Below are positions 13,568 through 35,263 of a stretch of DNA of 64,000 bases, piece after piece (position 1 is the stretch's first letter; each line of letters opens with the position of its first letter). Origin of the DNA: an uncultured virus (IMG/VR IMGVR_UViG_3300043473_000258) (Duplodnaviria; Heunggongvirae; Uroviricota; Caudoviricetes); the IMG/VR virus record IMGVR_UViG_3300043473_000258. One strand, written 5' to 3'. The notes beneath the pieces are model-generated. The model was not told where the DNA came from. It did no database searches and was given only the letters and a program-made list of their open reading frames with translations. The position numbers were made by a program, and so were the translations under genes.

Positions 13568-14908
13568 ATGCCGGAAAATCCCTTGGCGTGTTTGACGCAC
13601 GACGCAATCAATAACCGATTCGTCACTGCCACAGGCGTCATCACCGACCTTTATTACAAGCAGCAGGTCTGCTTGGATCCGTGGCGCAGTCGCTTCAAGC
13701 AGCGGGAATTCCCCCTCGGACAGGGCACGAATCCCAGCTACGTGAAGCTCTTCCGCACCATTCCTTACCAGGATTTGGAAATGCTTCCGCTCGGTCTCTC
13801 GGTTTGCGACTCGAGCTTCGACGGTCAGAACCCGTACAGCGGGTGCGATCCGGGCTACATCAACTTGCCGCTCATGGGCCAGTTGCTGAAGCAGATGACC
13901 ATTTACCGCAGTCCGCGCATTCGGACCCCGGAAATCTGCTTGCTCGACCTCCAGATGAGTCACGATCCGACGTCGATGATCGACGCGCAGATCGACAATC
14001 TGGCGTTCGCGACCTCGTGGTACTGGAGCGAGCTCACCCTCAAAAATCTCATCGATGGGATTTACAATCAATGGGTCATCCAGCCGTACAGCGACGGCTC
14101 GATCCCCGAGGGCAAGGGCACTCTGCCGCAGATCGAGGCCACCCAGCACATCACAGTCGGTGTGCTCGACCGCATCACCCAGCAGCTCATGTACAAGGGC
14201 GTCGGGTGCTCGGACGGCAACGGGTGCAACCAGCCGGTCTTCGACTTCTACATTGGCGGCGAGTCTGCCAACAACATGATCCGTCAGGATCCCGTGCTCC
14301 GTCAGGACATGCGATTCTCGGATGACGCCAACACCTTGCTGGGGGGCATGAATGCCTTCAAGTGCAAGGAGTACCACGGCTACAAGTTCAACTACGTGGC
14401 TTACCCGCCGCGCTTCAACTTCGTCGCTGGTGAGTACGTGCGCGTGCTTCCCTTTGGCCCTGGCATCCCGGTTACGATCGGGCCCGACCAGGAGGTCACA
14501 GCGGAGTACGAGGCCGCCCTCTACGAGAGCGCCTTTGTCATCCCGACACCGGACGTCATGCACTGGCTGGTGCCACCGCTCCAGCTCCGCTTCAACAAGG
14601 TCACCTTCGGCGGTCAAGGCACGCCGAATTACGCGGGTGACTTCGCCTGGCTCAACTACCAGACCGATTGCAACACCGACAAGAGCAAGGGCTTCTTCGA
14701 GGCGCAGTTCCTGGTGGGCTGGGACTTCCCATTCCCCGAGTACGGTTACCACATCGTATTCAAGCGTTGCTTCACTCCGATCGGGCCATTCAACTGCTCC
14801 CCGAACGGTGTGCCGAGCTGCACTCCGACCGTGTTCCCCGATCCGCCGTCGCCCGCTTCGCCGCCCGCGCCGTGGATCGATCCGTGCCTCCCGGTCACCT
14901 CGCCGTAG
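13568..14908 (+). CDS. Putative major capsid protein (13 Cys)
   Basis: 446 aa after the scaffold, with its own leader and a strong terminator. Positional inference. Confidence 0.7.
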   Translation: MPENPLACLTHDAINNRFVTATGVITDLYYKQQVCLDPWRSRFKQREFPLGQGTNPSYVKLFRTIPYQDLEMLPLGLSVCDSSFDGQNPYSGCDPGYINLPLMGQLLKQMTIYRSPRIRTPEICLLDLQMSHDPTSMIDAQIDNLAFATSWYWSELTLKNLIDGIYNQWVIQPYSDGSIPEGKGTLPQIEATQHITVGVLDRITQQLMYKGVGCSDGNGCNQPVFDFYIGGESANNMIRQDPVLRQDMRFSDDANTLLGGMNAFKCKEYHGYKFNYVAYPPRFNFVAGEYVRVLPFGPGIPVTIGPDQEVTAEYEAALYESAFVIPTPDVMHWLVPPLQLRFNKVTFGGQGTPNYAGDFAWLNYQTDCNTDKSKGFFEAQFLVGWDFPFPEYGYHIVFKRCFTPIGPFNCSPNGVPSCTPTVFPDPPSPASPPAPWIDPCLPVTSP

Positions 14909-14926
14909 TCAATCCCTTAACCAAAA

Positions 14927-14963
14927 GGCCGTCGCTCTCTTCCAGGGGGAGCGGCGGTTTTTT
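14927..14963 (+). terminator. Intrinsic terminator
   Basis: GCCGTCGCTCTCT-loop-GGGGAGCGGCGGT followed by a T-run. Confidence 0.85.
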
Positions 14964-14965
14964 GT

Positions 14966-15005
14966 TGTGCACGAGAAATATTACTTGTGCACATAATTAT
15001 AGGAT
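14966..15005 (+). promoter_or_regulatory. AT-rich promoter with dyad operator for the Y-RNA/Ro60 operon
   Basis: TGTGCACGAG-N8-CTTGTGCACA inverted repeat, then TAATTATAGGAT. Confidence 0.55.
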
Positions 15006-15007
15006 GC

Positions 15008-15104
15008 AGAATGCGTGCGGTCGGTGGCGATTGGAGACGGTTACTTCATTGCAACTGAAACGCCGAAAGGCTACCCGGATCCGCCTGTTCCCCGACCACG
15101 TTCT
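15008..15104 (+). ncRNA. Y-RNA-like unit 1 (no tRNA domain)
   Basis: Terminal stem, CGGTTACTTC (15038) and CGCCTGTTC (15082) shared with units 2-4; upstream of Ro60. Confidence 0.7.
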
Positions 15105-15112
15105 TTTACAAT

Positions 15113-15245
15113 TTGCCGTAGTGTTTGGGTCGGTTACTTCCATGTTAAGGAAGAGTTCCGGGTTCGAATCCCGGCCGCGCTCCATTTATGAGCGTGGTGG
15201 TGAAATGGTATCACGCTAAATGCCCGACTCGCTTGTTCTCGGCAA
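15113..15245 (+). ncRNA. YrlA-type Y RNA unit 2 with permuted tRNA-like domain
   Basis: TTGCCG/CGGCAA stem; T-arm CCGGG-TTCGAAT-CCCGG, looped 8-bp acceptor stem, then D-arm. Confidence 0.85.
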
Positions 15246-15250
15246 TTCAT

Positions 15251-15395
15251 TTGGGTGGCGTCAGGCGCGGTTACTTCTGGAAATGTTGGCCGCAGGTTCG
15301 AATCCTGCCCGGTGTCCATCAATGACACCGGTAGCTCAGTCTGGTAGAGCGACATTTTGGCGAAAGCCAAGCTACCGCACCGCTTGTTCCCCCAA
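15251..15395 (+). ncRNA. YrlA-type Y RNA unit 3 with permuted tRNA-like domain
   Basis: T-arm GCAGG-TTCGAAT-CCTGC, acceptor CCGGTGTC/GACACCGG closed by a loop, D-arm TAGCTCAGTCTGGTAGAGC. Confidence 0.85.
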
Positions 15396-15411
15396 TTCAC
15401 CCTCAACCAAT

Positions 15412-15486
15412 TTGCGTGGCGACGATCGCGGATACTTCATCTGGCTCCTAACCGGAAACGAAAAGCCGCATCACTTGTTCCCGCAA
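15412..15486 (+). ncRNA. Y-RNA-like unit 4 (short)
   Basis: TTGCG/CGCAA stem, CGGATACTTC and CACTTGTTC motifs. Confidence 0.7.
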
Positions 15487-15516
15487 TTCATCTCCGGCTC
15501 GAAGCCGGTAGCGATC

Positions 15517-16836: not shown

Positions 16837-16837
16837 A

Positions 16838-17218
16838 ATGTCACTCACCGATCCAATCCAGCGAAAAGCGTACATGCGGGCATGGGTCGAGAAAAACCGC
16901 GACAAGACCCGCGTGTACGCTGCTCGCTCCTACCAGAAGCACCGGGCCAAGTGGGCCCACCGCAACCGGCGATACACCCTGCAAAGGAATTATCGCATCA
17001 CGCTGGAGGAGTATCAGGCGCTGCTGCTCGCCCAAGGGGGCCTTTGCGCCGTGTGCGAGAAGCCCCAAAAAAGCGGCCGGAGGCTGGCCGTCGATCACGA
17101 CCATGAAACCGGTCTGGTCCGCGGGCTCCTATGCCAGTCCTGCAACGGGAAGCTGGAGAAGTTCAAGCGGTACTTGGACGCCCACTATGAAATCGAAAAC
17201 GAAGGCCCGCAGGGGTAG
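16838..17218 (+). CDS. Endonuclease VII-family nuclease
   Basis: YRITLEEY..QGGLCAVC..LAVDHDHETGLVRGLLCQSCN. Confidence 0.9.
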   Translation: MSLTDPIQRKAYMRAWVEKNRDKTRVYAARSYQKHRAKWAHRNRRYTLQRNYRITLEEYQALLLAQGGLCAVCEKPQKSGRRLAVDHDHETGLVRGLLCQSCNGKLEKFKRYLDAHYEIENEGPQG

Positions 17219-17363
17219 ACCAAAAACATTCCGGGTCAGGCTCGTCTGCTACGTGTTACCCGACACGGCAAAAGCAGTGCGAGACCTGACCCGGAGTGGA
17301 CTGGCGGACGTGTCGACCGTGGGCAAAGTGGTCGACAAGGCGATTCAAAGACCCTTGCCGTAA
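17187..17363 (+). CDS. Small basic DNA-binding protein (RGRP, RHH-like)
   Basis: MKSKTKARRGRPKT, then a beta-helix-helix-like pattern. Confidence 0.45.
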   Translation: MKSKTKARRGRPKTFRVRLVCYVLPDTAKAVRDLTRSGLADVSTVGKVVDKAIQRPLP

Positions 17364-17388
17364 TTTGGGTCCCGCGGGACACTGAGGG

Positions 17389-18723
17389 ATGCCCGGTGGG
17401 AACGACAATGAGGTCAACGCGCTTTACGCGATTGCGTGCTCGACGGGTGAAATGGCGACGGCGGCCGGGGGAGTGCCGGTGGCCAATTACGGCGACAACG
17501 AGGACTCACTGGCGATGGCGATCGCCTGCAACCTCTACGCGACCCTCGGCGGGCTCGGCAGCGACTGTCAGCCGACGTGGGTGGACGGGGCGACCGCGTG
17601 GCAGGCGATTTTGCAGATGTCGGCGGCACTCGTCGGCCTGACCGGCGCCGGGGATGCCGTGGGCTTTTACGAGCTGCCGCAGCAGGGCGTGTTTTGCAAC
17701 CTGCTGCAGGTCTCGACCAACACGGGGACAACCGCGGAAGGTGATTTCGGCGGCAACGAGGGCGACCTTGCCCTGCTCAACTCGATTGCGTGCGTGACCG
17801 CGCAGATTGCTGCCAACGGCTTCACGCCGCCCCCACCGGCCCCAACAGGGCTGAACGCCATCGCCAATTACTCGGCTGTGAATCTGTCGTGGTTTGGGAC
17901 TTTCGTGGACAACTACAAGGTCTACCGCGCCACCGTGAGTGGCGGCCCGTACACGCTTATCGGCAGCCCGGTGAGCTTCTCCTTCAACGACCTCACAGTC
18001 ACTGACTGGATTCCGTACTTTTACGTTGTCACCGCGGTCGTTGGTGGACAGGAGAGCGCGTACTCCATCGAGAAAAGCGCAACGCCCGAGCGCAGGCCGG
18101 AGGGGCTTTACGACGCGAGCGCATTGACGCCGGGAGCCATCACCGCATGGCCCGAGAAAAACCTCATCGTGGCGCGTAATCTCTCGGGTACGGCCACCGT
18201 GCTCGCCGCCGCCCAGAATGGGCTGAACGCGGTGGATTTTAACGGGTCTACACACCAGTTGGCGGCAACGCTGACCACGCCGACCCAGCGCACTGTCATC
18301 ATGGCACTGCGGACGGCGAATCTCAACAACGCCAACCCGGCCATCAATTTCGGTAGCGGCGTCACCTCGAATCTCAACGGCATCCTGCGCCGGACGACCG
18401 GCGACTGGGCCTTCGCCACGCCCGGTACGGGAGTGCCCGTCAATTATGGCGTCCTGACGGATCCTCCCGGCGTTCTAGCGTGGGTCTACGATGGGCCCGG
18501 CAACGTGGTGCGGCTGTATAAGAATGGCGTCTTCGTGACCGGGACCACCCACAATGCGAGCAACGCGGGCGTGAGCGCGACCCTGCGCCTCGGAAGCGCG
18601 ACCGGCGCGGCAAACTTCAAGGTCTGCACATGGTTCGAGTTGATCGTCTACGACGCCATCATCCCAGACTCGGCCATCGCTCTCAAATCCGCACAGCTCC
18701 AGGCAAAGTGGGCTTTGCCCTAG
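17389..18723 (+). CDS. Virion structural protein with FN3 and LamG-like domains
   Basis: PAPTGL..YKVYRATVSGGPYT..YFYVVTAV..ES (FN3); C-terminal LYKNG..LRLG..ELIVYD. Confidence 0.7.
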   Translation: MPGGNDNEVNALYAIACSTGEMATAAGGVPVANYGDNEDSLAMAIACNLYATLGGLGSDCQPTWVDGATAWQAILQMSAALVGLTGAGDAVGFYELPQQGVFCNLLQVSTNTGTTAEGDFGGNEGDLALLNSIACVTAQIAANGFTPPPPAPTGLNAIANYSAVNLSWFGTFVDNYKVYRATVSGGPYTLIGSPVSFSFNDLTVTDWIPYFYVVTAVVGGQESAYSIEKSATPERRPEGLYDASALTPGAITAWPEKNLIVARNLSGTATVLAAAQNGLNAVDFNGSTHQLAATLTTPTQRTVIMALRTANLNNANPAINFGSGVTSNLNGILRRTTGDWAFATPGTGVPVNYGVLTDPPGVLAWVYDGPGNVVRLYKNGVFVTGTTHNASNAGVSATLRLGSATGAANFKVCTWFELIVYDAIIPDSAIALKSAQLQAKWALP

Positions 18724-18754
18724 ACGGATTTTCAAACTCGCCTGAATCTTTCCT

Positions 18755-19906
18755 ATGCCCGGCTACTCATGGGACCCCTACAGCGGCGTGCTCCTGCCAA
18801 AGTGCTGCGACGATGCGTGCAGCTATGCCTACGATCCGGGCAGCGGTGAGCAGTTTGTCGCCGAGTGCGACCCGACCATCCTGCCGGGCTACGTGCCCAA
18901 TCCCGGCCAGTGCGTGTGCAGCGATGTCGTGCCGCCGCCGCTTCCGCCGCCGCCTACGGGCCTGTTTGCCGATCCGGGTGTGGACACCAACACTCTGCTC
19001 TGGTCGCCCAATGGCCTCGGCGATGCCTTCAACGTCTACCGCAGCACGACTCCTGGTGGCCCCTACACTTTTCTCGCCGACGCCGGGGGCGGCTTCACCG
19101 CGTTCTATGTGGACTCGACGGCCGTGGGAGGCACGACCTACTACTACGTCGTGACCAAGGTGGTCGATGGCGTGGAGAGCCTGCCAACCAATGAGGCCGA
19201 CGCGGCCACGCAGACCGAGTGGGACGGAGTCGTGCAGCAGCTCCTGCAGTGGAACCCCGACCTCATCATCTCGGCAGAGGGATTGCCGGGAGTGCTCGGC
19301 ACGCCGATCGTCTCCATCGTCAACCGCGGCATCGCGGGCGGCACCATGGGGCAGACCAACGCGGCGAGGCAGCCGACGCTGGTCCCGGCCGGGCTCAACG
19401 GTCATCCGACCATGCGCTTTGACGGCGTGGACGACTTACTCCAGATGCCCCTTGCGGGCCTGACCTCGATTGCCGCCATCACGGTCTTCAAGCGCAGTGG
19501 GGTGAACACCAACACGCGCATTGCCACCGTGCTCACGGGGCTCAATGGCTCGGACGCGACTGCCGTGAGTCCGATTCCGCACTTCTTCAACGCCGACACG
19601 CTGGGCTCGCATTACGCGGGCGCTGGGCCGGTGGGCTTTCCGATCGCGGACACGAATTTCCACTCGGCCATCTCGTATCTCGACGGCGCCGGGAACGGAT
19701 TCATCCGGCTGGACGCGAGCGCGTACAACTCGGCTCCGCTTTGCTTGCAGACAGCGGACCCCAACGTCTACGCGGCCCTCGGCGGGACCGGTGGCGGCCT
19801 TTCGCTCCTCGGCGAGATTGCCGCTCACGTTCGCTGGAAGACGGCCCCCACGCCGACCAACCTGAACAACGCCTGGATCCAGCTCCGCAACTACTACGGC
19901 CTGTAA
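18755..19906 (+). CDS. Virion structural protein: Cys-rich N-terminus, FN3, LamG-like
   Basis: FN3 paralogous to 17389; FDGVDDLL motif. Confidence 0.7.
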   Translation: MPGYSWDPYSGVLLPKCCDDACSYAYDPGSGEQFVAECDPTILPGYVPNPGQCVCSDVVPPPLPPPPTGLFADPGVDTNTLLWSPNGLGDAFNVYRSTTPGGPYTFLADAGGGFTAFYVDSTAVGGTTYYYVVTKVVDGVESLPTNEADAATQTEWDGVVQQLLQWNPDLIISAEGLPGVLGTPIVSIVNRGIAGGTMGQTNAARQPTLVPAGLNGHPTMRFDGVDDLLQMPLAGLTSIAAITVFKRSGVNTNTRIATVLTGLNGSDATAVSPIPHFFNADTLGSHYAGAGPVGFPIADTNFHSAISYLDGAGNGFIRLDASAYNSAPLCLQTADPNVYAALGGTGGGLSLLGEIAAHVRWKTAPTPTNLNNAWIQLRNYYGL

Positions 19907-19909
19907 GCC

Positions 19910-21951: not shown

Positions 21952-23619
21952 GTGGCCACCGGACCTTTCCCAGTTGATTTCCGCGGTGCGCCGGTTCAGT
22001 ACGCGCTCACTCCGAGCATGTGGGTCTGCGGTCTCGCGGGTGGTGGCGCGGTTCCGGTACGCATTGCGGCCAGCGCCTTCGCGAGGGCCGGAGCTGGCGG
22101 GAGCAGCGGCACCGGGCCAACTGGCCCAACTGGCGCCACAGGCCCGGTCGGAGCAACCGGGGCAACTGGAGTCACGGGCGCCACTGGCCCCGGAGGAGCG
22201 GGATCTGTTGGTGCGACTGGCCCAACTGGGCCGACAGGTGCCAGTGGGCCGGTGGGAGCCACGGGGTCAACAGGGCCCAGCGGCCCGGCTGGCGTCACGG
22301 GCCCAGCCGGACCAACCGGCGACACTGGACCCACTGGTCCTACGGGTGCCGTGGGGCCGACCGGTGTCACGGGCCCAACGGGAGCCACCGGACCACAGGG
22401 AATTCCGGGCTTCATCGGCGCAACCGGACCCACTGGGCCCGCGGGAGCGACCGGACCTACGGGTCTGACGGGAGCGACGGGGCCGACCGGCCCTACTGGG
22501 CCAACCGGAGTGACCGGACCTTCCGGCCCGACCGACGCCACGCGCCACAACGTCAACCAGACGGCGCATGGCTTCGTGGTGGGCGACATCGTGCGCTTCA
22601 ACGGCACGATTTACGTCAAGGCCCAGGCCGACAGCGCCACCAACTCGGAGGTGGCCGGGATCGTGGCCGTCATCATCGACGCCAACAACTTCACCCTCAT
22701 CACGAATGGCTACGTCACCGGGCTGACGGGACTGGTAGCCGGGACGACCTTCTTCCTGAGTCCGAGCGTGGCCGGGGCATTGACTGCCACGGAGCCCACG
22801 ACCGCTGGACAGGTCACCAAGCCGCTCGTCATCGCCGACACGACGACCTCCGGGTACTTCTTCAACTTCCGCGGCTTCGTGGTCGGCACCCCGTCTTCTG
22901 GTGGCTCGAGCATCGCGCAGGGTCTCTACGCCTCGCGGCCGGGCTCAGGCACCAACGTCGGCGACACCTACATCGCCACCGACAGTCCCTTGATGTCTGT
23001 GTGGACGGGTTCTGTCTGGAATACCTTCCACAAGGGCGGCGAGCTGGCGGCATCGCCCGGCCTTTCCTCCGGCTACACGCAGGTCAACTTCGGAGCCGGG
23101 AACGTCACGCTCTCGGATGTTGGCGGCGTGATTGGGATGAAGATTATCGACAACGGCCTGAACCTGCGCACGCTGGTCAAGGCCCAGCCGAGCACGCCCT
23201 ATCACATCGAGTTTTTCCTGAAGGGGCTAAACTTCAACCTGAACAGCACGGCCGCCGGGGTGTATTTCTACGACGGCACCAAGTTCATCGGCATCGAATG
23301 CCTTGGCCAGAACGCCGGAACGATTCTGCGTGTCCAGCGGTGGAACAGCATCACGTCGGTAGGCACCTCGGTCTACGCTCCCTCGGGTGGAATGCTCGTT
23401 GGGCTGGAATTTGGAGGGGTGTGGCTCCGGCTGGGGAACAACGGCACCAACCTGACCTTCGACTACTCATTCAACCGCGGCGACTGGTGGCAGATGTACA
23501 CGGAGACCCTCGCCACCTTCATCACGCCAACGCACTACGGCTTCGGAGGGGTGTGCGTAACCGGAGTCGCGCCGAATTTCATCCAACTGAGCATCCAGGG
23601 ACTGAACCTGACAGCATGA
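21952..23619 (+). CDS. Collagen-like (G-X-T) fibre protein
   Basis: Long GPT/GAT tract, [10 protein letters not shown] domain, C-terminal beta-rich head. Confidence 0.85.
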
Positions 23620-25040
23620 GCAGCTCGACTTACAACATCCCTCCGGGCCCACCGGGCGCGACTGGGCCGACAGGCGCCACGGGCCCAACAGGGCTCACGG
23701 GTGCGACCGGCCCCATTGGCGTGACTGGGCCTGCAGGCGTGACAGGACCGACTGGCCCGATCGGCGCAACAGGACCGCAAGGAGTGGCAGGAGTTGCCGG
23801 TCCAACAGGTCCAACCGGAGTTACGGGCCCGGCTGGAGTAGCGGGACCTACGGGTCCAACGGGCGTGACAGGTCCGGCAGGAGTTGCCGGGCCCACTGGA
23901 CCGACTGGCGTGATTGGACCGGCAGGGCCCACAGGACCAACAGGTCCCATCGGGGCGACCGGCGCCACGGGGCCAACTGGAATCACCGGGCCAACGGGTC
24001 CGACCGGCCCAGTGGACGCGACGAGGCACGCCGTCAATCAGACCGGCCACGGCTTTGTCGTCGGCAATCTGGTGCGGATTTCGAGTTTCGGCTTCTATGG
24101 GTTTGCGAGTGCGGCCAGCGCGGGTGCCGCTGAAGTAGCAGGCATGGTCGGTCAGGTGATCGACGCCAACAATTTCGTGTTGGTCACGAACGGCTGGGTG
24201 AGCGGGCTGACGGGCCTGACCAACGGCGTCTATTTCCTCGATGCCACCGGCTCCGGCACGATGTCGCACACCGAGCCGAGCACGGTGGGGCAGGTGAGCA
24301 AGCCCGTGTTTATCGCGGACAGCACGACCAGCGGCTACTTCTACAACTTCCGCGGTCAGGTCATCGCGGCGGCGGCGACGGCGGATCCTCGGCTCTCGCG
24401 CTGGCGCTATTACTCGGTGACGCCTGCCGTCCCAAACGCGCAGGACGACGAATTTGTGGGTACGCTCAACCCGCTCTGGACGCCGTGGGGCGACAACTCG
24501 AGCCTCGGCCAATGGGTGGTGGGCGGCCTCGAGACCAAGGAGGTGAACGTGATTTACACGGGCAGCGCGGCCGGAGCCTTCCGGTGCGGCGGCCTTCAGC
24601 AGGCGGCACCTCTGGCGCCCTGGCGGATCACCGTGCCCACAGTCTTCAACGGCGGGACCGGCTACGAGCAGGGCATCGGGCTCTTCGCCCGCGAAAGCTC
24701 GACCGGGAAGATGTGGATTGTTGGCCGCGGCTTCCTGAGTGGAGTAGGTGCGCTGGGGACTTACTACATCCAGTACACGGGCTCTGGCCCCTACACGAGC
24801 AGCGGCTCGGGCTGGATTGAGTATGGCTGCCACTATCCACTCTGGCTGCGCCTCGAGCGCACAGGCACGGTGATCAACACCTATACCAGCACCGATGGCA
24901 TCAACTGGACGACGCTGCAATTCTCCATCCAGCTCACGGGCGCCTTCACCGTGGAGCCCGACCAGTACGGAATCTTCGCCAACAGTTACACGACGAGCCT
25001 TCCGGGCGCTGGGACGTTCGGCCCATTCCGCGTAGGATAA
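23616..25040 (+). CDS. Collagen-like fibre protein, paralogue of 21952
   Basis: ATGA-coupled start MSSSTYN; same middle domain, different head. Confidence 0.85.
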
Positions 25041-25043
25041 TTT

Positions 25044-25949
25044 ATGGCCCAATCTGCACTCACACCTCCGCCAGCGGGAGCCTCCGGTCCAACAGGGCCG
25101 GGAGGTCCAGTGGGACCAACTGGGCCAACAGGGCCCACGGGACCCGGCAGCATCACGAGTACCAAGCTGCCGCTCAAGGGCAACAATACGGGTGGCGCAA
25201 TTCCCATCGGCATCCAGGCCATGGCCGATGCAGACTTGGTCGCTCCAGCCGGTACAAATCTCGTCTACATCAGCGCGTTTTTTACAGCCGCTCGCACTCT
25301 CGTCATTCCGCCGTCGACCGGCTATGCAGTAGGCGATTCCATCCTCGTGACTGACCCCAATGGATGCGTGGGCGGCACTACGGGGCTCGCGGTCGCGCCA
25401 ACTGGAGCCGACACGATCAACGGAGCGAACACCTGGCTGTGGCTTTTCAACGGCCCACGCCGCTCGTGCAGGCTTGTCGTGGGATACAGCGGCGGCTGGG
25501 GCACAGACGACAACCGCTACGGCATCACCAATGGCAGCAACGCGATAACCGGGGAAGTGGGGGAGGTTGTCCTAGCCTCGCGAGCGATTGGGGCGGGCGT
25601 GGCCATTGTCAACGCGGTGACAATCAATGTGACTAGCATCGCGCTCACGGCTGGAGATTGGGATGTGAGCGGGCAAAATGGGTATCAAGCCAATGGGACT
25701 GTCAACTTGAGTGCGCTCGCCGGGGGATGCACCTCGGTTTCAGCAGGCTTCCCGCCTGACGAGCAATCCACCTTGCTTCGCTACCCTGCCTCGAGTCTCG
25801 GCGGCGGCAACACCTTCTTCCTGCCCTTCCCGACGACCCGCTTCAATCTCACTGCGCCCGCGACAATCTACCTGACCGCGCTCGTCCTCTTTGCCGGGGG
25901 CGGGACGATGCTGGCTTCTGGTTTAATCCGAGCCCGGAGGATGAGATAA
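25044..25949 (+). CDS. Short-collagen fibre/decoration protein
   Basis: GPT tract; C-terminal [20 protein letters not shown] domain. Confidence 0.75.
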   Translation: MAQSALTPPPAGASGPTGPGGPVGPTGPTGPTGPGSITSTKLPLKGNNTGGAIPIGIQAMADADLVAPAGTNLVYISAFFTAARTLVIPPSTGYAVGDSILVTDPNGCVGGTTGLAVAPTGADTINGANTWLWLFNGPRRSCRLVVGYSGGWGTDDNRYGITNGSNAITGEVGEVVLASRAIGAGVAIVNAVTINVTSIALTAGDWDVSGQNGYQANGTVNLSALAGGCTSVSAGFPPDEQSTLLRYPASSLGGGNTFFLPFPTTRFNLTAPATIYLTALVLFAGGGTMLASGLIRARRMR

Positions 25950-26083: not shown

Positions 26084-27106
26084 ATGGCGTGCGGACCAGA
26101 CCAAGACGAGCTCGTCGCGAGGAAGCGATTCATTGAGTCATCCGAAGGGGTGAACAACTGCCTGCCGGAAGAGAGCGGGGTCCAAAGTGTTTCGGCTGGT
26201 CTCATCGGCACCTGCACGAATTGGATGATGGCCGCGTCGGTCTTCGCGCTCCAGACGTGGCGGGCGATTTGCTGGCTCTGGGCACGCATCCAGGTCATCG
26301 AGGGCCAGATTGACGACCTCCTCGTGCCGTCCACCGGCCCGACCGGCCCGACCGGCCCAGCGGGCCCCACGGGTCCGACCGGTGCCGACTCGACTGTTCC
26401 CGGCCCCACCGGTCCGCCCGGCGAAACCGGTCCTTCAGGGGGTCCAACTGGACCGTCCGGCCCGTCCGGCCCTGTTGGTCCGATTGGCCCCACCGGTCCC
26501 ACTGGCCCGATGGGCTTGGTGGGTCCGACCGGCCCGACAGGGGCCACCGGCCCAATCGGTGCGACCGGCGCCACGGGTGCTCCTTCTGTTGTCGTCGGCC
26601 CCACTGGACTCATGGGTCCCGTTGGTCCGGCAGGCCCCAGCGGCCCGAGCGGCCCACCGGGCACCGGCATCTCAGGGGTCATCGACGGCAGCACCGGAGC
26701 CCCAGGCATGGTCGGTGAGGTTCTCCGCGCTGATTTGGCCCAGATTGGCGCGGTCGCCTACCTCGGCGGCTGGCAGACCGTGCTCTCGCTGGTCCTGACG
26801 CCTGGGGACTGGGACATCACGGGCGTCCTCTGGTACAACCCCGTGTCGCTCGAGCCCGTGGCGGTCGTGGGCGCATCGCTGAGTTTCGTCACGAACACGC
26901 AGGGCATCCCCAACGAGGCAAATACTGGCATCTGGCAGCAGCCGGAGCAGAACATCAACCCGTACTCCGCCACGCCGGTAGGCCCGGTTCAATCGACTTC
27001 TGCCGCGTCGAGGACGGTCTTTCTGACGGCCAAGATTCTCGATGAGCCCACCGTTGCCGGTTCGGGAGTCGTGTGGGGAGTCATTCGAGCCCGGAGGATG
27101 CGATGA
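26084..27106 (+). CDS. Collagen-like fibre with Cys-rich N-terminus
   Basis: MACG..; G-X-Y tract; same IRARRMR C-terminal domain. Confidence 0.8.
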
Positions 27107-28218
27107 GCTGCGCCCGTACCGTCATCAACCGCAAGCGCATCGTCGAGGCGCTCACGGCGCTCATTGCCTGTATGCCCGCGGGAGCGAATATCTCGTCCCT
27201 GCTCGGGCTCATCAATTCGTGCTGCACCATTGAGGACGCGCAGGCGATTTTCGACTTGGCCATCCAGCGGTCGGCTTGCTACCTGCAAACCGCAGGCTTG
27301 CTGCCATTCAGCCCCAGCGTGCAGCTATGGGACGGGCTGAGTGACGTGACTATCGACGACGGCATCAACCTGCTGAGATTGACTGGCCCTCCCGACGACG
27401 GCCGCACGATCTTCCTTCCACCGGTCGCCGGATACACGGGTGGAGCATACGTGGCCCTCGACCTGGGGATGGGCATTGACGTCCTGTTTGGCTACGCCGT
27501 TCTCCCCTCGGGCACAGACACCATCGACGGGAAGCCTGACATGGTGCCGCTCATGGGCGCGGCCTACCTCATCTTCACGCCCTCTGGCACCGGCAACTGG
27601 ACCTATCAGGTCGCCAATAACGACGATCCACGCTTCGTGCGGATTTTCAGCAGCACCGCCTTCTTCGGGGGCACCCCGGCCATCCCAGACATCAGGGTTG
27701 TCCCGGCTTCCTACAACGGCAACCCGACCTCATGGATTGGGCACGACGGGCTTTCGGGTGGGTACGGCGGGATCATGATCCCCATCAATCAGTTCGACCC
27801 GCTTCGGCTGGTGGACCGATTCAACTTCCCCATCGACGCGCTCATGCGCCATCCGCTCTCGAGCAACATCGCGCAGCCGGTGCCAACGCTTGGGACAGGG
27901 GCTGGGACCATCGGCGCCGGGGCTGAAATCGCCATCGTGGGCAACGACACCTGCGGCTGGGTGCGGGTGCTGACCGGCGCGGACGCAACGGGCGTGGGCG
28001 AAATCTTCGTGCTGCCATTTGACGGCCCATTTGCCGGAGCTCCCAGCGTGATCATGCAGTCGGGCGACGACACCACGCGCCTCGCGGACGCCGACTCTAT
28101 CTACGCTCCTCTGGACACCACTACCACCACCGAGTTCCGCGCCACGTTGCCCACCGGCAAAACCCTCGCGCCCTCTTCCGCCTATCGCTGGAGATACCAC
28201 ACCTTCGGAGGTCAATGA
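27103..28218 (+). CDS. Structural/tail protein with Cys-rich N-terminus
   Basis: MSCART..INSCCT; shares the PSGTDTIDG module with 25044. Confidence 0.7.
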
Positions 28219-28407: not shown

Positions 28408-28575
28408 ATGTACGCCATCGACTACATCAACGGGACCATCATGTGTCCTTGCGAGGGCAGCGCGACGTCCTTCGTGAACCTCGACACCGGAGAAATCCAG
28501 TGCCTCGTCGACTGCGGGGACTGCAGTAAATCGTGGTCCTTCGTGGACAACCAGTTCAATCAGATTTGCGAATAA
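28408..28575 (+). CDS. 55-aa protein with 6 Cys
   Basis: Read manually; preceded by TAGACG-17-CACCTT-5-ATG. Confidence 0.65.
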   Translation: MYAIDYINGTIMCPCEGSATSFVNLDTGEIQCLVDCGDCSKSWSFVDNQFNQICE

Positions 28576-28578
28576 CCT

Positions 28579-29514
28579 ATGTCCTGCGGATGCGCCGGTC
28601 CCCAGCAACTAAACTCGTATGGCTGCTGCTGCAGATGCGGCCAGCTTCCGGCTATTCGTGAAGAGGGTCCGCCCGGCGAGCAGGGGCCAGCGGGGGTGAC
28701 GCCGAGCTTTATCATCGGCTCGGTCACGGCTGGGCCGGTGCCCGCGGTCGTGCTCACGCAAATCACGCCGACGCTCTGGCAGTTTGATTTCGTGCTGCCA
28801 GGGGCGCCGACCTCGACTGAGAACACCTGGAGCGAGACCCAGACCTTCCTCGCCGAGGCGATTTTCGACGACGGGCTGACCTCCGATGGGCCGGTGCTCA
28901 TTGACGACAACCTTAACGTCACTGGCAATGCGCAGTTCAACACGGTGCAGGTGCTCGGCGACCTGACCAGCAACGGAACGGCGGAGTTTCAGAGCCTCAC
29001 CGTCTTCAACAACACGAGCATCGGCGGTGACCTCTTCGTTGCGGGGGCCTTCACCACCATGCTCGCCGCCAACTTCAATGGCGGAGTCAACGGCATCACC
29101 AACGGAGCGGCGGCCGGGGTCGGCCAAGTGGGCGAAATCATCTTTTCAGAGGTGCTCTCCGGCTCGGCCGTGCCGCTGGTCACCGACACGCCAAAGACGG
29201 TCACCTCCATCGCGCTCACGGCGGGCCAGTGGAACGTCTTCGGCGTCGTCCATTACATCGGGCTCTTCGGCATCACCACGCTCGCCTACATCGGCGGCGG
29301 AATTTCCGTTGTGGACAACTCCTTCTGGGCTTTCGGCCAGGGCGTGCTGACGCCCGGTGGCGGAGCGCCCATCACGGTCGACGTGGGAGTGCCGATTCCC
29401 ACCGTGACGGTCAACCAGCCGGGCGGGCTGCTGCACTTCCTCATCGCGCAAGCTGGCTTTGGGGTGGGTAACCTCTCCGCCTACGGCAGAATTTGGGCAA
29501 TCCGAGTACGCTGA
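28579..29514 (+). CDS. Tail fibre/spike with Cys-rich N-terminus
   Basis: MSCGC..GCCCRC; beta-repeat shaft; LTAGQW..IWAIRVR domain. Confidence 0.75.
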   Translation: MSCGCAGPQQLNSYGCCCRCGQLPAIREEGPPGEQGPAGVTPSFIIGSVTAGPVPAVVLTQITPTLWQFDFVLPGAPTSTENTWSETQTFLAEAIFDDGLTSDGPVLIDDNLNVTGNAQFNTVQVLGDLTSNGTAEFQSLTVFNNTSIGGDLFVAGAFTTMLAANFNGGVNGITNGAAAGVGQVGEIIFSEVLSGSAVPLVTDTPKTVTSIALTAGQWNVFGVVHYIGLFGITTLAYIGGGISVVDNSFWAFGQGVLTPGGGAPITVDVGVPIPTVTVNQPGGLLHFLIAQAGFGVGNLSAYGRIWAIRVR

Positions 29515-29517
29515 CCT

Positions 29518-30483
29518 ATGAGCTCCTGCGGCAATACCGATCCCTGCGCACCGGTCAATCCATGCGATTGCGTGGAGCCCGCCGCTATTCGCGAGCAGGG
29601 TCCTCCGGGCCCCGGTGGAGCACCGGGCGGCATCCCCGTCTTCCAAATCGGCGTGGTCATTGCGGGCGCGGTGCCAGCGGTGACGATCGTGCAGGTCAAT
29701 CCGCTGCTCTACACGCTCAACTTCGTCATCCCGAGTGCCAACCTCACCACGCCCAATACGTGGACCGAGATTCAGACCTTCCAGGGCAAGGCCGTTTTCA
29801 ACAACGGCTTCACCGCGACGGGCGACTCGAACATTCAGACGCTGACTGTTGGGAATTTGACGGTCGCGGGCAACGGCACCTACGTCGGGCTGCAGACCTT
29901 CAATGGGGGCGCGGTCTTCAACGGCCCGGCTGAGTTCAACGGCGGAGCCGACATCGACCAGCTCCGTGTCTCGGGCACCATCCAGAACGCGGGCATCACG
30001 CAGCTCCCGGCCAACACGCCGATTCTGGGCACGGTGGCCGTCGACAACTGCGGCAACTTCTTTTATCAGGGCACTCTCGGGCCAAACAGCACGGCTGGGT
30101 CCTCGGCGCTCGCGATGAATGTGCCCTTCAATCAGGCGGAGACGGCCATCCCCTTCAGCCTGCCCTTCGTGGTGCCCAACCTCCCAGCCTGCGGCGTGGC
30201 CCAGCCCGCGGCGGTCATCATCCGCGGCGACGTTGTCACCAACGCTGGTGGCGCCATCCCGGTCGACATCTCGAGCTTCCGGGTCTTCGTGCGCTTGGAC
30301 AATGCGGTGACCGGCACAATCCTCGCCCAGCGCATCTTCACCAACTTCGAGGCGGGCGGGGCATGGATCACCAACGCGCTCATTCCGCCCGGCGCTCACA
30401 CGCTCTTCTTCACGATCGCCGGTCTGAGTGTCGGCAGCTCGACCATCACCCTCATCGCAATCGACTGCTCGATTGACTTCTAA
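29518..30483 (+). CDS. Tail fibre/spike, N-terminal paralogue of 28579
   Basis: Shared AIRE.GPPG..NTW.E.QTF. Confidence 0.75.
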   Translation: MSSCGNTDPCAPVNPCDCVEPAAIREQGPPGPGGAPGGIPVFQIGVVIAGAVPAVTIVQVNPLLYTLNFVIPSANLTTPNTWTEIQTFQGKAVFNNGFTATGDSNIQTLTVGNLTVAGNGTYVGLQTFNGGAVFNGPAEFNGGADIDQLRVSGTIQNAGITQLPANTPILGTVAVDNCGNFFYQGTLGPNSTAGSSALAMNVPFNQAETAIPFSLPFVVPNLPACGVAQPAAVIIRGDVVTNAGGAIPVDISSFRVFVRLDNAVTGTILAQRIFTNFEAGGAWITNALIPPGAHTLFFTIAGLSVGSSTITLIAIDCSIDF

Positions 30484-30485
30484 AT

Positions 30486-32597
30486 GTGGCTTCCCAAACA
30501 CAAGCAAAGCCAAGATACCGGGACGGCTGGGACGCCCTCGCCGGGGGCATGGACGCCGGGCGCGATCCGTCGCTCATCGGCAAGGACCAGGTTGCGTTCG
30601 CGCTGAACACGACCTTCCGCGGCGGCTTCCCGCGCACGCGGCCGTACTTCGTAAAGCATCCCATCACCTTCCTCTCGGAGGAGGAGCGGAGCTGGTTCGA
30701 GACGGAGATTTTCCAGGGAATGTTTTTCTACTCGATTCAGGCCACCCCGAACACGGTCGTCAGCAACACCAACGCCGGGTATCTCATCTTCTGCGTTGGC
30801 GGCAGGCTCTGGCGCATCAAACCGCGCAGCTTCGTGGCCGAGGAAATCACGCCCCCGGACGGCCGCAACAGCCGGGTGATTCCGATGGCCTACTTCGCGC
30901 AGGCGGAGCAGTGGATGATCGTGCAGGACGGGCAAAGCGCCCCGATTTTGTGGGACGGCGGCAACACGCGCCGGGCGGGACTCAACGAGGTGCCGGTCGG
31001 CACGCACATGGCCTACGGCCAAGGGCGGCTCTTCGTCATCGTCGGAAACGTGCTCATGGCGGGCGACATTGTCGGCGGCCCTGGCGGCCCCAATGCGGTC
31101 ATCAACTTCACCGAGCGGCTTGAGAAAATCCTCAACAGCGATTTGTCGCCGAGCTTCGTCATCGGTAACCCGGTTTTCCTCGAATTCATCCCGCAGCAGG
31201 ACACGGCGACCGGTGTGGGCACCCTTCTCGTCGGCGGCGAGCACGGGGTCACCAGCATCGCCGCGGAGAAGCCCCGCATCGAGTGGAGAAACGGCATCGC
31301 CCGCGTGGTGCTCTTCGGCATCGGCGGCACCGGCCACCGCAGCCCGGCGCAAATCAACGGCGACATCTACTGGCGTGCGGCCGAGGGCCTGCGCAGCTAC
31401 CGCCAGGCGCGTGCGCAAGTCACGGCACTCGCCCAGCTCCCGCTCTCAACCGAGCTCGACCCCTTCTTCATGGCCGACACTCCGCAGCTCCTCCAATTCG
31501 TGAGCAGCGAGTATTTCGACAACCGGTTGCTCATGACTGTGAGCCCGCGCTGGAGCAATGGCCGCTGCTGGTTCGGTGGTTTGATGTCGCTGGATTTCAA
31601 TGCGCTTTCCAGCTTCGGGAAGACCATCACCAAGCCCAGCTACGACGGAATCTGGACGGGGCTGAACATCTCGGAAATCCGCGGCGGCGGCGGCCGGTGC
31701 TGGATGGCGGGCATCGACGAGGTCGGCCGCAATTCGCTTTACGAGGTGACCCTCGACGAGCAGGTCCTGGTGGGCGACGTCAACGACGAGCTCGACGTGC
31801 GCCGGGTGCGCGGCCAAATCGTCAGCGGAGCCTACGTGACCAAGGAGCTCGGCAGTCACAGCCCGAAACGGCTTATCGGCGGGAAATTCACCGTCCGAAA
31901 CGTCCGCGAGCGAGTCGACCTGGGCATTGACTATAAGAAAGACGGCGAGCAGTGCTGGCAGCCGTGGGACGGATACAGCTTCTGCGCGGACACCGTGCTC
32001 TGCACGCTGCAGCCCAGCGACGAGGAGCCGTGCGAGCGGCCCTTCGTGGCCAACCCGCAGTACCGCGTGCCCATCGTGCTGCGCCAGCCGGATGCGCTCG
32101 AGGCGAAGAGCAACAACCCGCCCGATGGCGCCGGAGCGTTCGGCGCGTCGATGGTCAACGGCTACGAATTCCAGAGCCGCTTTCGTTTCGAGGGCAACGT
32201 GCAGCTCCGCTGGTTGGAGATGGAGTTCAATCCCGGCTACGAGAAGCCGGTGAGCGGCTGCGTGCCCACCGAGGACTGCAGCTATTCGAACGTGTGCTGC
32301 GAGGACATGTGGGAGTTCACCCCGGAGCTGCCCAACTATCTCATCCCGCTCAACCCGCCAGACCCGAAGGCCGTCACGCTCGATGCGATGCAGGCCATCA
32401 TCAATTATTTGGGCAACGGGCTGCTCACGCCAATCAACGACATCAACGATGCGCTGCCTTTCCCACCGGAGGTCATAAATGACGGTCTAGTCATCCTAAT
32501 CAACAACGGTACACTAGATCATCCCTCCAATCCTCCGGGCGGCGGAGGTGGTGGTGGCGGTTTCGTCAGATTCATTCCACTCGATCGGGCCCATTAA
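30486..32597 (+). CDS. Putative tail nozzle/stabiliser (tubular B / P22 gp10-like)
   Basis: 703-aa beta-rich protein with N-terminal GGMD..PSLI..FRGG..RP; podovirus gene order. Confidence 0.6.
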   Translation: MASQTQAKPRYRDGWDALAGGMDAGRDPSLIGKDQVAFALNTTFRGGFPRTRPYFVKHPITFLSEEERSWFETEIFQGMFFYSIQATPNTVVSNTNAGYLIFCVGGRLWRIKPRSFVAEEITPPDGRNSRVIPMAYFAQAEQWMIVQDGQSAPILWDGGNTRRAGLNEVPVGTHMAYGQGRLFVIVGNVLMAGDIVGGPGGPNAVINFTERLEKILNSDLSPSFVIGNPVFLEFIPQQDTATGVGTLLVGGEHGVTSIAAEKPRIEWRNGIARVVLFGIGGTGHRSPAQINGDIYWRAAEGLRSYRQARAQVTALAQLPLSTELDPFFMADTPQLLQFVSSEYFDNRLLMTVSPRWSNGRCWFGGLMSLDFNALSSFGKTITKPSYDGIWTGLNISEIRGGGGRCWMAGIDEVGRNSLYEVTLDEQVLVGDVNDELDVRRVRGQIVSGAYVTKELGSHSPKRLIGGKFTVRNVRERVDLGIDYKKDGEQCWQPWDGYSFCADTVLCTLQPSDEEPCERPFVANPQYRVPIVLRQPDALEAKSNNPPDGAGAFGASMVNGYEFQSRFRFEGNVQLRWLEMEFNPGYEKPVSGCVPTEDCSYSNVCCEDMWEFTPELPNYLIPLNPPDPKAVTLDAMQAIINYLGNGLLTPINDINDALPFPPEVINDGLVILINNGTLDHPSNPPGGGGGGGGFVRFIPLDRAH

Positions 32598-32599
32598 CC

Positions 32600-33310
32600 A
32601 TGAGCGTCGTCAATGTCACAGTCGCAAATCCGCCAGCCGGGCTGTGCATCCCGCCTGCGTGGGTGAAATGGCTGCAGGAGGCCATCATCCTCAATCAGTC
32701 GAACATTGAGGGCAGCCAGCGCATCCTCAAGCAGACGACAGCTCCTGGCCCGGACGATCGCGATGCCTTGTGGCACAAAATTTCCGGCACCGGCATCTCG
32801 CTGGGCCTCTTCACTTATTCGAATGGCGCGTGGAGGCGTTTCCCTACGACTCCCATCGGCGCCCGCGTCTTTTACACCGGGCCCATCACCGGAGTCTTCG
32901 ACCCGCAAAGCTACATCGGGATCCCCGGCACCGAATGGGACGGCTGGCAGCTCGACTTCACTTTCAAGAACCTGTTCCCCGTCATCGCGAGCGACTACGA
33001 CGCGCAGCTCGGGGCCTGGCAGACGATGGTGCCGGGCTCGCCGCAGCAGCAGGGCGGATTCCCCACGGTCACGCTCTCCCCGGCCAATGTGCCGCTGGCC
33101 AGCACGCCCGCGGTCACCACCTTCCTGCACGCCCGCGGAAATCCCGGCATCGGCGACTTCGTCCTGTGGGGCGACCAGTCGGCCTCGGGAGGGCTCAACG
33201 AAAAGACCCTCATCCCGGCCTTCGCGGGCAACCCGGACCCGCAAGCCTTCCAAATCCTGCCGCCATTCGTCGCGCAGGCCCAGATTGTCTACATCGGAAT
33301 TGCACCCTGA
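32600..33310 (+). CDS. Tail collar/needle-like structural protein
   Basis: GG..TVTL...NVP and ILPPFVA..I motifs resemble collar-domain proteins. Confidence 0.55.
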   Translation: MSVVNVTVANPPAGLCIPPAWVKWLQEAIILNQSNIEGSQRILKQTTAPGPDDRDALWHKISGTGISLGLFTYSNGAWRRFPTTPIGARVFYTGPITGVFDPQSYIGIPGTEWDGWQLDFTFKNLFPVIASDYDAQLGAWQTMVPGSPQQQGGFPTVTLSPANVPLASTPAVTTFLHARGNPGIGDFVLWGDQSASGGLNEKTLIPAFAGNPDPQAFQILPPFVAQAQIVYIGIAP

Positions 33311-33313
33311 CCC

Positions 33314-35263
33314 ATGCTTCTCTACGGCGATGTCAAAAGCACCCTGACTCAAGCGAGTGACGGTGGCTGTGATCCTGCGCAGGTCATTGAGCGGGTGAAC
33401 GAGGCCATTCCCCTGCTCATGGGGAAAATGTATTTCGTCGGCACGGTCGCCGAAATCAACATCCAGACTTTCGTGCCGGAATTCAGCCTGCCCTTCGGCT
33501 ACGAGCGGGCGCTCTCAGTCATTCAGTGCGCGGCCGGTGACTTCAACCAGGGCTGGTACTCGATTGAGAACAGCGCGGCCTACATCGACCCCGCGCAGTG
33601 GGGCGACTCGGTCGCGATCGACCTGGGACTCAAAGCCACCGAGCGGTCGCTCCTGGGCCCGGCGAAAATCATCGTGCAGAGCGATTACAACGAGGACTTC
33701 GGCCTCGAGCTGCGGCTTTACGGGTCGCTCGCGGGCAACACGAATTTCGTCTACTACGAGCAGGACGGCCGGATGCTCCCGCAGGGCTGGGAGACGCTAC
33801 CCATCGGGCCCGACAACACGAACAAGTCGACCACGGTCAATCTCTACGACTTCATCAGCGCCATCCGCAAGCCCATCACCAAGGGCCCCGTCCGCATCCT
33901 GGCGCAGGACGAAAACAGCGGGCGGCTCTACCGCCTCATCACCCTTCAGCCCAATGAAACCGATGCCCAACGCCGCTGGTACAAGTACCCGGAGATGCAG
34001 TTCACGAAAATCGTACCGCGCTGCGTCTACCCCACCGACGAGGGATTCCAGGTCGACACGAATTTCGAGCAAGTCCCGCTTTGTGCTGGCGACTCTATTG
34101 TCCTGTCTGGCTTCTGCCCCACTCAGTTCAACGGTCTCTGGACGGTTGCGTCGGTTGTTGGCTCGAGTTTCTACGTCGTGGCGCCCATCAAGGCGGGCTG
34201 GACAAATCCGGGCGAGGCCATCTCCGCCATCGGGTGCTGCACCAAGCTGGCGTGCATGACGGTGAGCGCCTCGAAGGAGTTTGTCCCAATCGTGGACGAC
34301 AACAGCGAGGTCATCATCCAGAACCGGCTCGCGCTGCGCATGGCCGTGCGGGCGATGTGGGCGTGGGACACGGGCGACGTCGATGGGCCGCAGGGTTTCA
34401 CGACGCTGGTCGGCGAGGCGGTGAAGATGCTCACCGACGACCTCACGCGCTACGGGCTCGACCCCACCAACACGCTCAACCGCAAGCAGGCTTACCGCTT
34501 CGAGCACGACAACTACGCGCCGTCGACCTTCGGCTACATCCGCGCCCGGCTCGCCCTCGACATGACCAACGGGCTGCGCTACGGCCGCAGCGACCTCGGC
34601 CGCCTGCTCAACGAGGCCCAGGAATTGTCCATCGTCTCGGGCAAGTACGGCAACACCGCGGTCGAGCGCGTCTTCGAGGTGACTGATTGCCGGAAGATCG
34701 TCCTCGACCCGGACTGCGAGAGCGTGCTCACAGCTTCATTCGCCAGCGTCAACGGCGCGAGCTTCAGCGGCGGCGGCGGGGAAATCATCATCGGCGACAA
34801 GTATTGGAGGAGCACGACGAGCATGAGCCCCGGCCGCGGCATGGGCTATGGCGGCCAGCCGTACTTCGCGCTCTCAACTCTCGGCGGAGCTGGCTTCCTC
34901 AAGGCGACCCTGGTGCCATGCGAGGAGGAGGAAAAGGACGAGCACGGGCGATGCTGTAAGGTTTTCCGGCTGGAGCCGTGCGGGGCCTTTCGAAACTGCT
35001 GCATCACCGCCGTCGTGAAGCTGCGCTACCTCGAGGCCATCTGCCTCAAGGACCACATGCTGATTACGAATTTCGCCGCGCTCAAATTCATCGTGGAGGG
35101 CCTCATCAAGCGGGAGGCCGGTGACTTCGAAGCGTACCAGAAACTCAAGAACGCGGGCTTCGCTTTGCTCGACGTCGAGATTCGGCACAAGAAGGGCGGA
35201 GCGCAGGGCAAGGTCCGGCGTCCCGGCTGGGCCCTCATCCGCCGCACCCAAGGAATGCGATAA
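33314..35263 (+). CDS. Putative head-tail adaptor-like protein (17 Cys, internal duplication)
   Basis: Two similar modules, ERVNEAIPLL and RLLNEAQELS; position in the tail block. Confidence 0.5.
   Translation: MLLYGDVKSTLTQASDGGCDPAQVIERVNEAIPLLMGKMYFVGTVAEINIQTFVPEFSLPFGYERALSVIQCAAGDFNQGWYSIENSAAYIDPAQWGDSVAIDLGLKATERSLLGPAKIIVQSDYNEDFGLELRLYGSLAGNTNFVYYEQDGRMLPQGWETLPIGPDNTNKSTTVNLYDFISAIRKPITKGPVRILAQDENSGRLYRLITLQPNETDAQRRWYKYPEMQFTKIVPRCVYPTDEGFQVDTNFEQVPLCAGDSIVLSGFCPTQFNGLWTVASVVGSSFYVVAPIKAGWTNPGEAISAIGCCTKLACMTVSASKEFVPIVDDNSEVIIQNRLALRMAVRAMWAWDTGDVDGPQGFTTLVGEAVKMLTDDLTRYGLDPTNTLNRKQAYRFEHDNYAPSTFGYIRARLALDMTNGLRYGRSDLGRLLNEAQELSIVSGKYGNTAVERVFEVTDCRKIVLDPDCESVLTASFASVNGASFSGGGGEIIIGDKYWRSTTSMSPGRGMGYGGQPYFALSTLGGAGFLKATLVPCEEEEKDEHGRCCKVFRLEPCGAFRNCCITAVVKLRYLEAICLKDHMLITNFAALKFIVEGLIKREAGDFEAYQKLKNAGFALLDVEIRHKKGGAQGKVRRPGWALIRRTQGMR

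Follow-up and report, generated by a model that had tools for sequence, protein, structure and literature searches.

A tandem pair of predicted Erv-type thiol oxidases in an uncultured tailed phage, and a fused N-terminal domain that tracks the cysteine content of the capsid

The window analysed here is a 64,000-base stretch of an uncultured virus (bases 1-64,000 of the 77,615-base linear record IMGVR_UViG_3300043473_000258, 67% complete by CheckV); it carries two adjacent genes, Erv1 and Erv2, which by their sequences encode genuine members of the Erv/ALR family, together with a virion module whose capsid protein contains 13 cysteines (Cys). The N-terminal domain of Erv1 recurs in relatives of the phage and, whichever Cys module is fused to it, tracks the Cys content of the capsid better than Erv itself does. 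We give an even chance to the reading that the shell and the fibre anchors are disulfide-linked and that the Erv pair helps to form the bonds before lysis; that disulfides exist in the virion is, taken by itself, quite probable, and whether they depend on Erv is a question on which the evidence is about evenly balanced. An earlier note, made from the sequence alone, had proposed that fibres and shell are stapled by the Erv pair: the co-variation of capsid Cys and the conservation of fibre Cys speak indirectly for disulfide pairing, and the Erv pair is real, but Erv has lost ground as the explanation of the contrast between outer and ejected proteins.

The two oxidase genes are:

51513..52109 (+), Erv1: N-terminal domain (residues 1-82, with C66-x11-C78) fused to an Erv/ALR domain (C142xxC145); Pfam PF04777, E = 1e-9
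52106..52510 (+), Erv2: stand-alone Erv/ALR paralogue with C58xxC61 and the extra residues C4 and C55; Pfam PF04777, E = 4e-10

The start of the Erv1 gene overlaps the stop of the preceding giant gene, and the two Erv proteins are 38% identical. Both pass the curated PF04777 cut-off of 27.6 bits, with scores of 38.8 and 40.4 bits, and W116, C142, C145, F166 and H173 are invariant in 20 Erv homologues, Erv2 included, drawn from the top of 150 listed matches and one further search; we take the CxxC to be the pair proximal to flavin adenine dinucleotide (FAD), and the W, H and HN residues to be FAD contacts. The predicted structure of Erv1 has the Erv fold: the AF2 model, with a predicted local distance difference test score (pLDDT) of 92.9, matched African swine fever virus (ASFV) pB119L (PDB 3gwl) in Foldseek with E = 4e-4, a probability of 1.0 and a template modelling (TM) score of 0.69 by target. 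Erv2 was assigned by sequence only. Three capsids of the window's own clade (approximately 81, 63 and 46% identical) each share their source and base count (74,623, 77,305 and 63,303) with an Erv1 homologue, which we used as a proxy for location on one contig. A literature search, with most subscription papers and supplements outside its reach, found no paper describing a phage Erv, and according to PMC13576161 phages have had no thiol-oxidoreductase machinery ascribed to them so far.

The protein in which the candidate bonds can best be resolved is the capsid protein:

13568..14908 (+): major capsid protein, HK97-type, with 13 Cys at positions 8, 35, 80, 93, 124, 214, 220, 266, 368, 401, 410, 418 and 440

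Its ESM Atlas model (pLDDT 0.58) gave TM scores of 0.57-0.59 to Phage_capsid_3/4 clusters; its sequence gave no match in the PDB. Seven of the Cys positions are invariant across eight capsids, down to 47% identity. Across 49 capsid homologues, C93 and C124 were present or absent together with a single mismatch and C401 and C410 with none, and of 3,796 column-residue features none but the partner came within one mismatch of either member of a pair. Because they co-vary so specifically, C93-C124 and C401-C410 are likely to form disulfides.

We collected relatives by two IMG/VR scans with capsid patterns (covering 26 and 17 of 64 parts), which gave at least 114 and at least 56 capsid loci among the matches listed (120 each). 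From the first set 82 records and from the second 40 were searched, with preference given to long ones, and 31 of these genomes were near-complete. Relatives carry a late gene whose first 80 residues are homologous to the Erv1 N-domain and which, where its context was read, lies among the late virion genes, either after the giant gene or beside TerL or the portal. The gene takes three forms, in which the N-domain is joined to an 8-Cys domain resembling DUF6171 and phrog_13558, to a short helix ending in CxxC, or to Erv. The N-domain aligned with the Erv-less 8-Cys family at P = 97% and E = 1e-10 in hhalign (score 33.9, against a maximum of 18.5 for shuffled controls) and with the short CxxC form at P = 93%; in 24 aligned rows C66 never varies, and C78 is kept in at least 90%. 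A literature search for DUF6171, with most subscription papers outside its reach, returned nothing.

Among the 31 near-complete relatives, 19 carry such a gene, 12 in the 8-Cys form and seven in the short CxxC form; 12 are without any form, although in a genome search the profiles used fail to pick up the N-domain of the window phage itself and may miss divergent copies. Capsids of the 12 genomes without the gene have 1-3 Cys, those with the 8-Cys form 3-7 (n = 12), those with the short CxxC form 9-14 (five of the seven counted) and those with the Erv form 11-14 (n = 4); the C93 and C124 pair is found in 0/12, 12/12, 3/5 and 4/4 of these classes, respectively. Put the other way, every one of the 16 near-complete relatives counted that have at least four capsid Cys carries the gene, and 12/13 of those with 1-3 are without it. 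In addition, one genome nested among the carriers (G050) has only a truncated ORF (open reading frame) of the N-domain (L198:1953-2195), and its capsid has lost C93. The sequences thus suggest that these phages have a disulfide factor of modular build, Erv being one of its plug-ins, on two to three independent contrasts, which is not significant. The broader claim, that a large uncultured podophage family carries a dedicated shell-disulfide factor made of an undescribed N-terminal Cys-x7-11-Cys docking or shuttle domain and one of three CxxC modules (the short helix-CxxC, the DUF6171-like 8-Cys domain and the FAD-linked Erv oxidase), lost together with the capsid Cys, we put forward tentatively and would not yet bet on. 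What is new here is the common N-domain with interchangeable CxxC modules.

For the remaining virion proteins, the features compared are:

7670..10045 (+): portal-like protein, 791 residues, 4 Cys; role assigned by its size, its position and its conservation across the family
17389..18723 (+): predicted fibre or decoration protein in which IAC motifs recur; five N-terminal Cys
18755..19906 (+): predicted fibre with 6/7 Cys within its first 55 residues (KCCDDAC..CVC); PHROG 10356 virion structural protein, E = 7e-7
22018..25949 (+): three ORFs for collagen-like/tail-fibre proteins (22018, 23616 and 25044), Cys-poor (3, 2 and 3); start of the first ORF uncertain
26084..28218 (+): two predicted fibres (26084 and 27103) with a common N-terminal domain holding three invariant Cys (C26, C44 and C63)
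28408..28575 (+): 55-residue protein with 6 Cys; virion location assumed
28579..30483 (+): two predicted fibres (28579 and 29518) with N-terminal Cys, six in the first 20 residues and four in the first 18, respectively
30480..32597 (+): nozzle-like protein with 11 Cys; role from size and synteny only
33314..35263 (+): adaptor-like protein, 649 residues, 17 Cys; SU10_adaptor-like lead

The Cys counts in the earlier note were accurate (capsid 13 in 446 residues, adaptor-like 17 in 649, nozzle-like 11, and 6 in 55 for the small protein at 28408), the nozzle-like protein being 705 residues long from the ATG at 30480 and 682 from that at 30549. We compared them with the pooled proteins of five reference podophages, T7, SU10, Bcep22, N4 (its virion RNA polymerase taken as 3,008 of approximately 3,500 residues) and phiKMV, with protein roles assigned by us. 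Cys made up 2.91% of the capsid against 0.28% in the references (13/446 against 5/1,797, P = 2e-6), 2.62% of the adaptor against 0.85% (P = 0.007), 1.56% of the nozzle against 0.64% (P = 0.017) and 1.33% of the fibres against 0.61% (P = 7.5e-5). The description of the outer proteins as Cys-rich therefore holds against other podophages, but not against the phage's own non-virion proteins, in which Cys makes up 1.5-1.8% (1.78% over 59 ORFs) compared with 93/5,706 or 1.63% in the outer proteins together (P = 0.52); for the capsid alone this comparison gave P = 0.03-0.10. Several virion proteins are Cys-poor, namely the portal (4/791), the scaffold-like protein (1/495), the collagen fibres (2-3 each) and the ORF at 32600 (1/236).

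In several of the predicted fibres the Cys lie towards the N terminus. The four fibre motifs singled out in the earlier note were located in ORFs 28579, 29518, 18755 and 27103, and clustering gave hypergeometric P values from 3e-8 to 0.013 for six of 12 fibre and other ORFs, which were picked by eye, with the lengths of the N-terminal segments chosen after looking. Fibre Cys are retained at 29-46% identity: the N-terminal ones are conserved in one relative (L009), two genes of which also carry the three-Cys domain of fibres 26084 and 27103, and 4/5 of the N-terminal Cys of the 17389..18723 protein persist in a homologue of 33% identity. Fibre 28579 matches PHROG 11393 tail fibre. A further ORF of 72 residues with 6 Cys and no family match lies just upstream of the capsid gene (13181-13399, +).

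Cysteines such as these might instead mainly coordinate metal, or be single buried thiols, leaving few disulfides in the particle. The 28408 protein, with its CxC and CxxCxxC, scores weakly, below threshold, against TerY_C and zinc-finger models, the three-Cys fibre domains and the IAC repeats could build Cys3 sites at the axis of a trimer, and in the capsid C8, C80, C418 and C440 occur as a set of four and C368 has no Cys partner in the co-variation. We nevertheless consider this explanation improbable; the two best-resolved capsid sets come and go in pairs, not in threes or fours, and the solved Cys-rich phage virions in the accessible parts of PMC13576161 and PMC10491603 are disulfide-linked.

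A number of observations weigh against a disulfide-linked virion served by the Erv pair, beginning with the unexceptional Cys content of the outer proteins as a whole noted above. Within the capsid, two clade-limited pairs that also co-vary, 35-214 and 220-266, and a likewise clade-limited set of four, 8/80/418/440, were rejected as evidence of bonds, since 22-37 other features share their patterns, which points to ancestry. For a contig of 72,332 bases whose capsid is 91% identical, the clusters looked up held no size-matched Erv1, and no thioredoxin-like gene was found among 56 ORFs scanned (approximately 30 small ORFs and the 63.5-77.6 kb region of this incomplete record lie outside that scan). 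The independent contrasts for the N-domain gene, 3/3 concordant, give P = 0.25, and with the short-form clade they number two for any N-domain gene and one for Erv; six other capsid features match the presence of the gene as well as C93 and C124 do (8 of 2,911). Exceptions are also found: G069 has the short CxxC form (L197:2179-2520) and a capsid with no Cys, G094 and G095 have an N-domain gene and lack C93 and C124, and the nozzle has 6-9 Cys with or without the gene. Finally, with the window as positive control, PF04777 was found in only 1/122 records searched and in none of the 31 near-complete genomes, five of which have 9-14 capsid Cys; the sole match, G052, has a capsid with one Cys, and the Agrobacterium phage Milano has no PF04777 gene despite its disulfide-stapled virion.

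The small number of contrasts, one to three that are independent, and the other capsid residues that track the gene equally would also fit an N-domain protein that is a zinc-binding head-assembly or structural factor, its match to capsid Cys arising from ancestry or direct cross-linking and Erv having been added for an unrelated job. The 8-Cys domain (CxxC, CxxC, CxxCxC, CW) has the look of a metal site, with low-scoring matches to phrog_13558 and DZR, and the gene often lies between TerL and the portal. On the other side, all three complete C-terminal modules carry CxxC, the sole one of known function being a thiol oxidase, and G050, with its truncated gene, has lost C93; we think this explanation has little chance of being correct.

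The clade's own Erv profile detected nothing in 24 relatives. In three of the five Cys-rich relatives without Erv, whole genomes showed 10-14 Cys in the nozzle and 6-8 in the adaptor, and nozzle homologues across the relatives have 6-14 Cys irrespective of Erv. Inheritance of the oxidase together with Cys-rich virion proteins thus fails across relatives and holds only inside the window's own clade. Because those five near-complete relatives and Milano all lack Erv, a virion can be Cys-rich or disulfide-linked without needing Erv, and we rejected it as a necessary partner of a Cys-rich shell. The Erv gene of G052 (L141:1271-2336), which has no N-domain, lies between a 75-residue DUF6171-like ORF with 6 Cys and a 132-residue Cys-rich ORF.

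Virion disulfides might form spontaneously at lysis into air, or through host Dsb proteins, with the Erv pair an accessory that serves different clients or a narrower range of them, for instance fibre tips or small proteins rich in Cys. The absence of Erv from all near-complete relatives fits this view, as do the DTT (dithiothreitol)-sensitive, cross-linked particles of Milano reported in the accessible text of PMC10491603 and the case of G052, where the capsid has one Cys and the Erv gene is flanked on either side by a small Cys-rich ORF; PMC13576161, in the part accessible, allows for spontaneous or host-driven formation. We regard it as rather unlikely, however, as it leaves unexplained both the distribution of the N-domain/CxxC gene with respect to capsid Cys and the fusion of Erv to that same N-domain.

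If the Erv pair does contribute, the phage would make the disulfides of capsid, adaptor and fibres during assembly, with the Erv1 N-domain predicted to act in docking or as a shuttle. A shuttle role has been proposed for the CX9C pair of mimivirus R596 (PMC3509050, accessible part), and by analogy with it C66-C78 may accept electrons from the thiols of virion proteins and hand them to the FAD-proximal CxxC, which would deliver them to O2. Relatives would use the N-domain with the 8-Cys domain or the short CxxC tail and would rely on another electron sink, Erv being an interchangeable, self-recharging plug-in. The avoidance of Cys in ejection proteins, presumably older than Erv, would keep the cargo out of the reach of the oxidase.

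These presumed cargo proteins lie directly upstream of the Erv genes:

35263..51516 (+): six predicted ejection/internal proteins (231, 284, 187, 205, 544 and 3,728 residues), called ejected from synteny and one weak PHROG match

Only two Cys had been noticed in this region, and the six plus-strand ORFs indeed contain 2 in 5,179 residues, at positions 1256 and 1261 of the 3,728-residue protein, inside DUF6884; 77-92 would be expected (P < 1e-22). An antisense HNH ORF within the range (35948-36391, -) has 4 Cys. Composition, or a high G+C content, was rejected as the cause, the depletion being specific to Cys, with a ratio of 0.03 against 0.42 for Trp, and Bcep22 and phiKMV, which we take to be high-GC phages, also having no Cys. 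The only PHROG match is that of ORF 36449 to phrog_6056 (E = 0.0011 over 29 residues), which is weak. The giant protein (40330-51516, +) is of polyvalent type, carrying DUF6884 and Kinase-PolyVal, and gave no RNA polymerase family match in a domain scan; relatives have Cys-free ORFs of 1,700-6,100 residues in the same slot. A smaller ORF (38078-38695, +) had no Pfam match even at E <= 5, and its C-terminal half looks by eye like what we presume to be a DPBB/RlpA-type lytic domain.

The earlier note had suggested that proteins which must unfold and exit avoid Cys, but Erv does not account for this avoidance. The ejection proteins of the five reference podophages, which are unrelated to Erv, contain one Cys in 17,017 residues (P = 0.14 against the 2/5,179 here), and the longest ejection-type ORF has 0-1 Cys in 11 near-complete relatives without Erv; G049 has no giant, and the long ORFs in that slot have 1-4 Cys. 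Erv was accordingly rejected as the cause. According to the accessible part of PMC11445570, ejection proteins of 191 Schitoviridae have near-zero Cys, attributed to passage through the periplasm. Cys-free ejection proteins are an ordinary, already published podophage trait, and this half of the proposal contributes nothing new.

The window phage is itself likely to be a podophage, because its capsid is HK97-type and its adaptor resembles the SU10 adaptor (a lead); the labels nozzle, portal and ejected are based on size and synteny. Its genes run in the order portal-like, scaffold-like, capsid, fibres, nozzle-like, adaptor-like, five ORFs of small or medium size, the giant and the two Erv genes; on the minus strand there follows a block that contains glycan-modifying genes, helicases and a terminase-like gene. 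The portal-like protein had no match in Pfam or PHROG, and the adaptor-like protein is about twice as long as the adaptors of most relatives. Capsid relatives lie on contigs of 72-77 kb, and the sequencing runs that best carry the phage are soil metagenomes (one may be its source). Close relatives were not found in IMG/VR by capsid or Erv patterns, nor in GTDB or, by tblastn of Erv2, capsid, nozzle and terminase, among cultured phages; a terminase scan gave six loci, all unrelated. The JGI loci L007-L014, L009 among them, do not extend as far as the position of the Erv genes.

Several other genes lie within or beside the virion module. A TROVE/Ro60-like RNA-binding gene directly follows the capsid gene (15517-16836, +); a scan of the window for Rfam families and tRNAs found none, including in the noncoding 14908-15517 upstream of this gene, so that a Y-RNA-like partner is unsupported. 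A PEP-CTERM protein is encoded between the portal-like and scaffold-like genes (10179-10877, +) and in L009 (27%), and we take it to suggest a Gram-negative host with an exosortase. A GT4 glycosyltransferase gene lies within the fibre genes (20734-21912, +) and Stealth-like, TylF, methyltransferase and GT34-like genes are grouped at 52507-56397 (-); glycosylation of virion or DNA is a possible role for them. An endonuclease VII-like gene (16874-17218, +) and the HNH gene mentioned above sit inserted in the virion module.

Disulfide-stapled virions, like Cys-free ejection proteins, are already known. What the window phage supplies is a candidate enzyme, named candidate bonds (C93-C124 and C401-C410) and genomes that allow a natural comparison, some having the factor and others lacking it. 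A modular factor, if real, would be the first phage-encoded machinery for virion disulfides and would point to two non-Erv thiol-oxidation modules; if the Erv-less forms do the same job, the DUF6171-like domain and the short CxxC phage protein would gain a redox role.

The viral Ervs, ASFV pB119L and mimivirus R596, share with the proteins described here the Erv fold and the FAD-proximal CxxC and represent a virus-encoded route to cytoplasmic disulfides. The poxvirus E10-A2.5-G4 proteins form a viral disulfide pathway with a thioredoxin-like relay, G4. The second, widely spaced Cys pair of Erv1 resembles the CX9C shuttle of R596, as far as the accessible part of PMC3509050 describes it. The present case differs in belonging to a tailed bacteriophage, in having two tandem paralogues and no thioredoxin-like partner among the 56 ORFs scanned, and in the fused N-domain of Erv1, which is shared with Erv-less genes and had no solved Foldseek match.

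With the Schitoviridae (N4 gp50-52 and DEV gp71-73), the likeness, from what is accessible of PMC11445570, is an operon that follows the tail genes, has a giant protein as its last product and encodes almost no Cys, Cys suppression there being proposed to reflect passage through an oxidising periplasm; the window giant differs in carrying Kinase-PolyVal and DUF6884 and no RNA polymerase family match, and its ejection is inferred. In other lineages, too, disulfides stabilise the particle, although in some only, as the accessible part of PMC13576161 reports for a siphovirus gp39 tail tube and for Bacteroides phage PD491P1. The closest parallel in the virion is Milano, whose particle is disulfide-cross-linked, with bonds seen by cryo-electron microscopy and mass spectrometry (PMC10491603 and PMC10811340, accessible parts). 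The bonds of the window phage, by contrast, are predicted from sequence; Milano is a myophage without a PF04777 or phrog_13558 gene, and tblastn of the window capsid against the phage collection gave no match. Both have a Cys-enriched capsid and Cys-enriched neck and tail proteins, those of the window phage being enriched relative to the reference podophages, the capsids having 10 Cys in 465 residues (2.15%) in Milano and 13 in 446 (2.9%) here, and the tape measure protein of Milano is, like the predicted ejection proteins, Cys-free (0/778).

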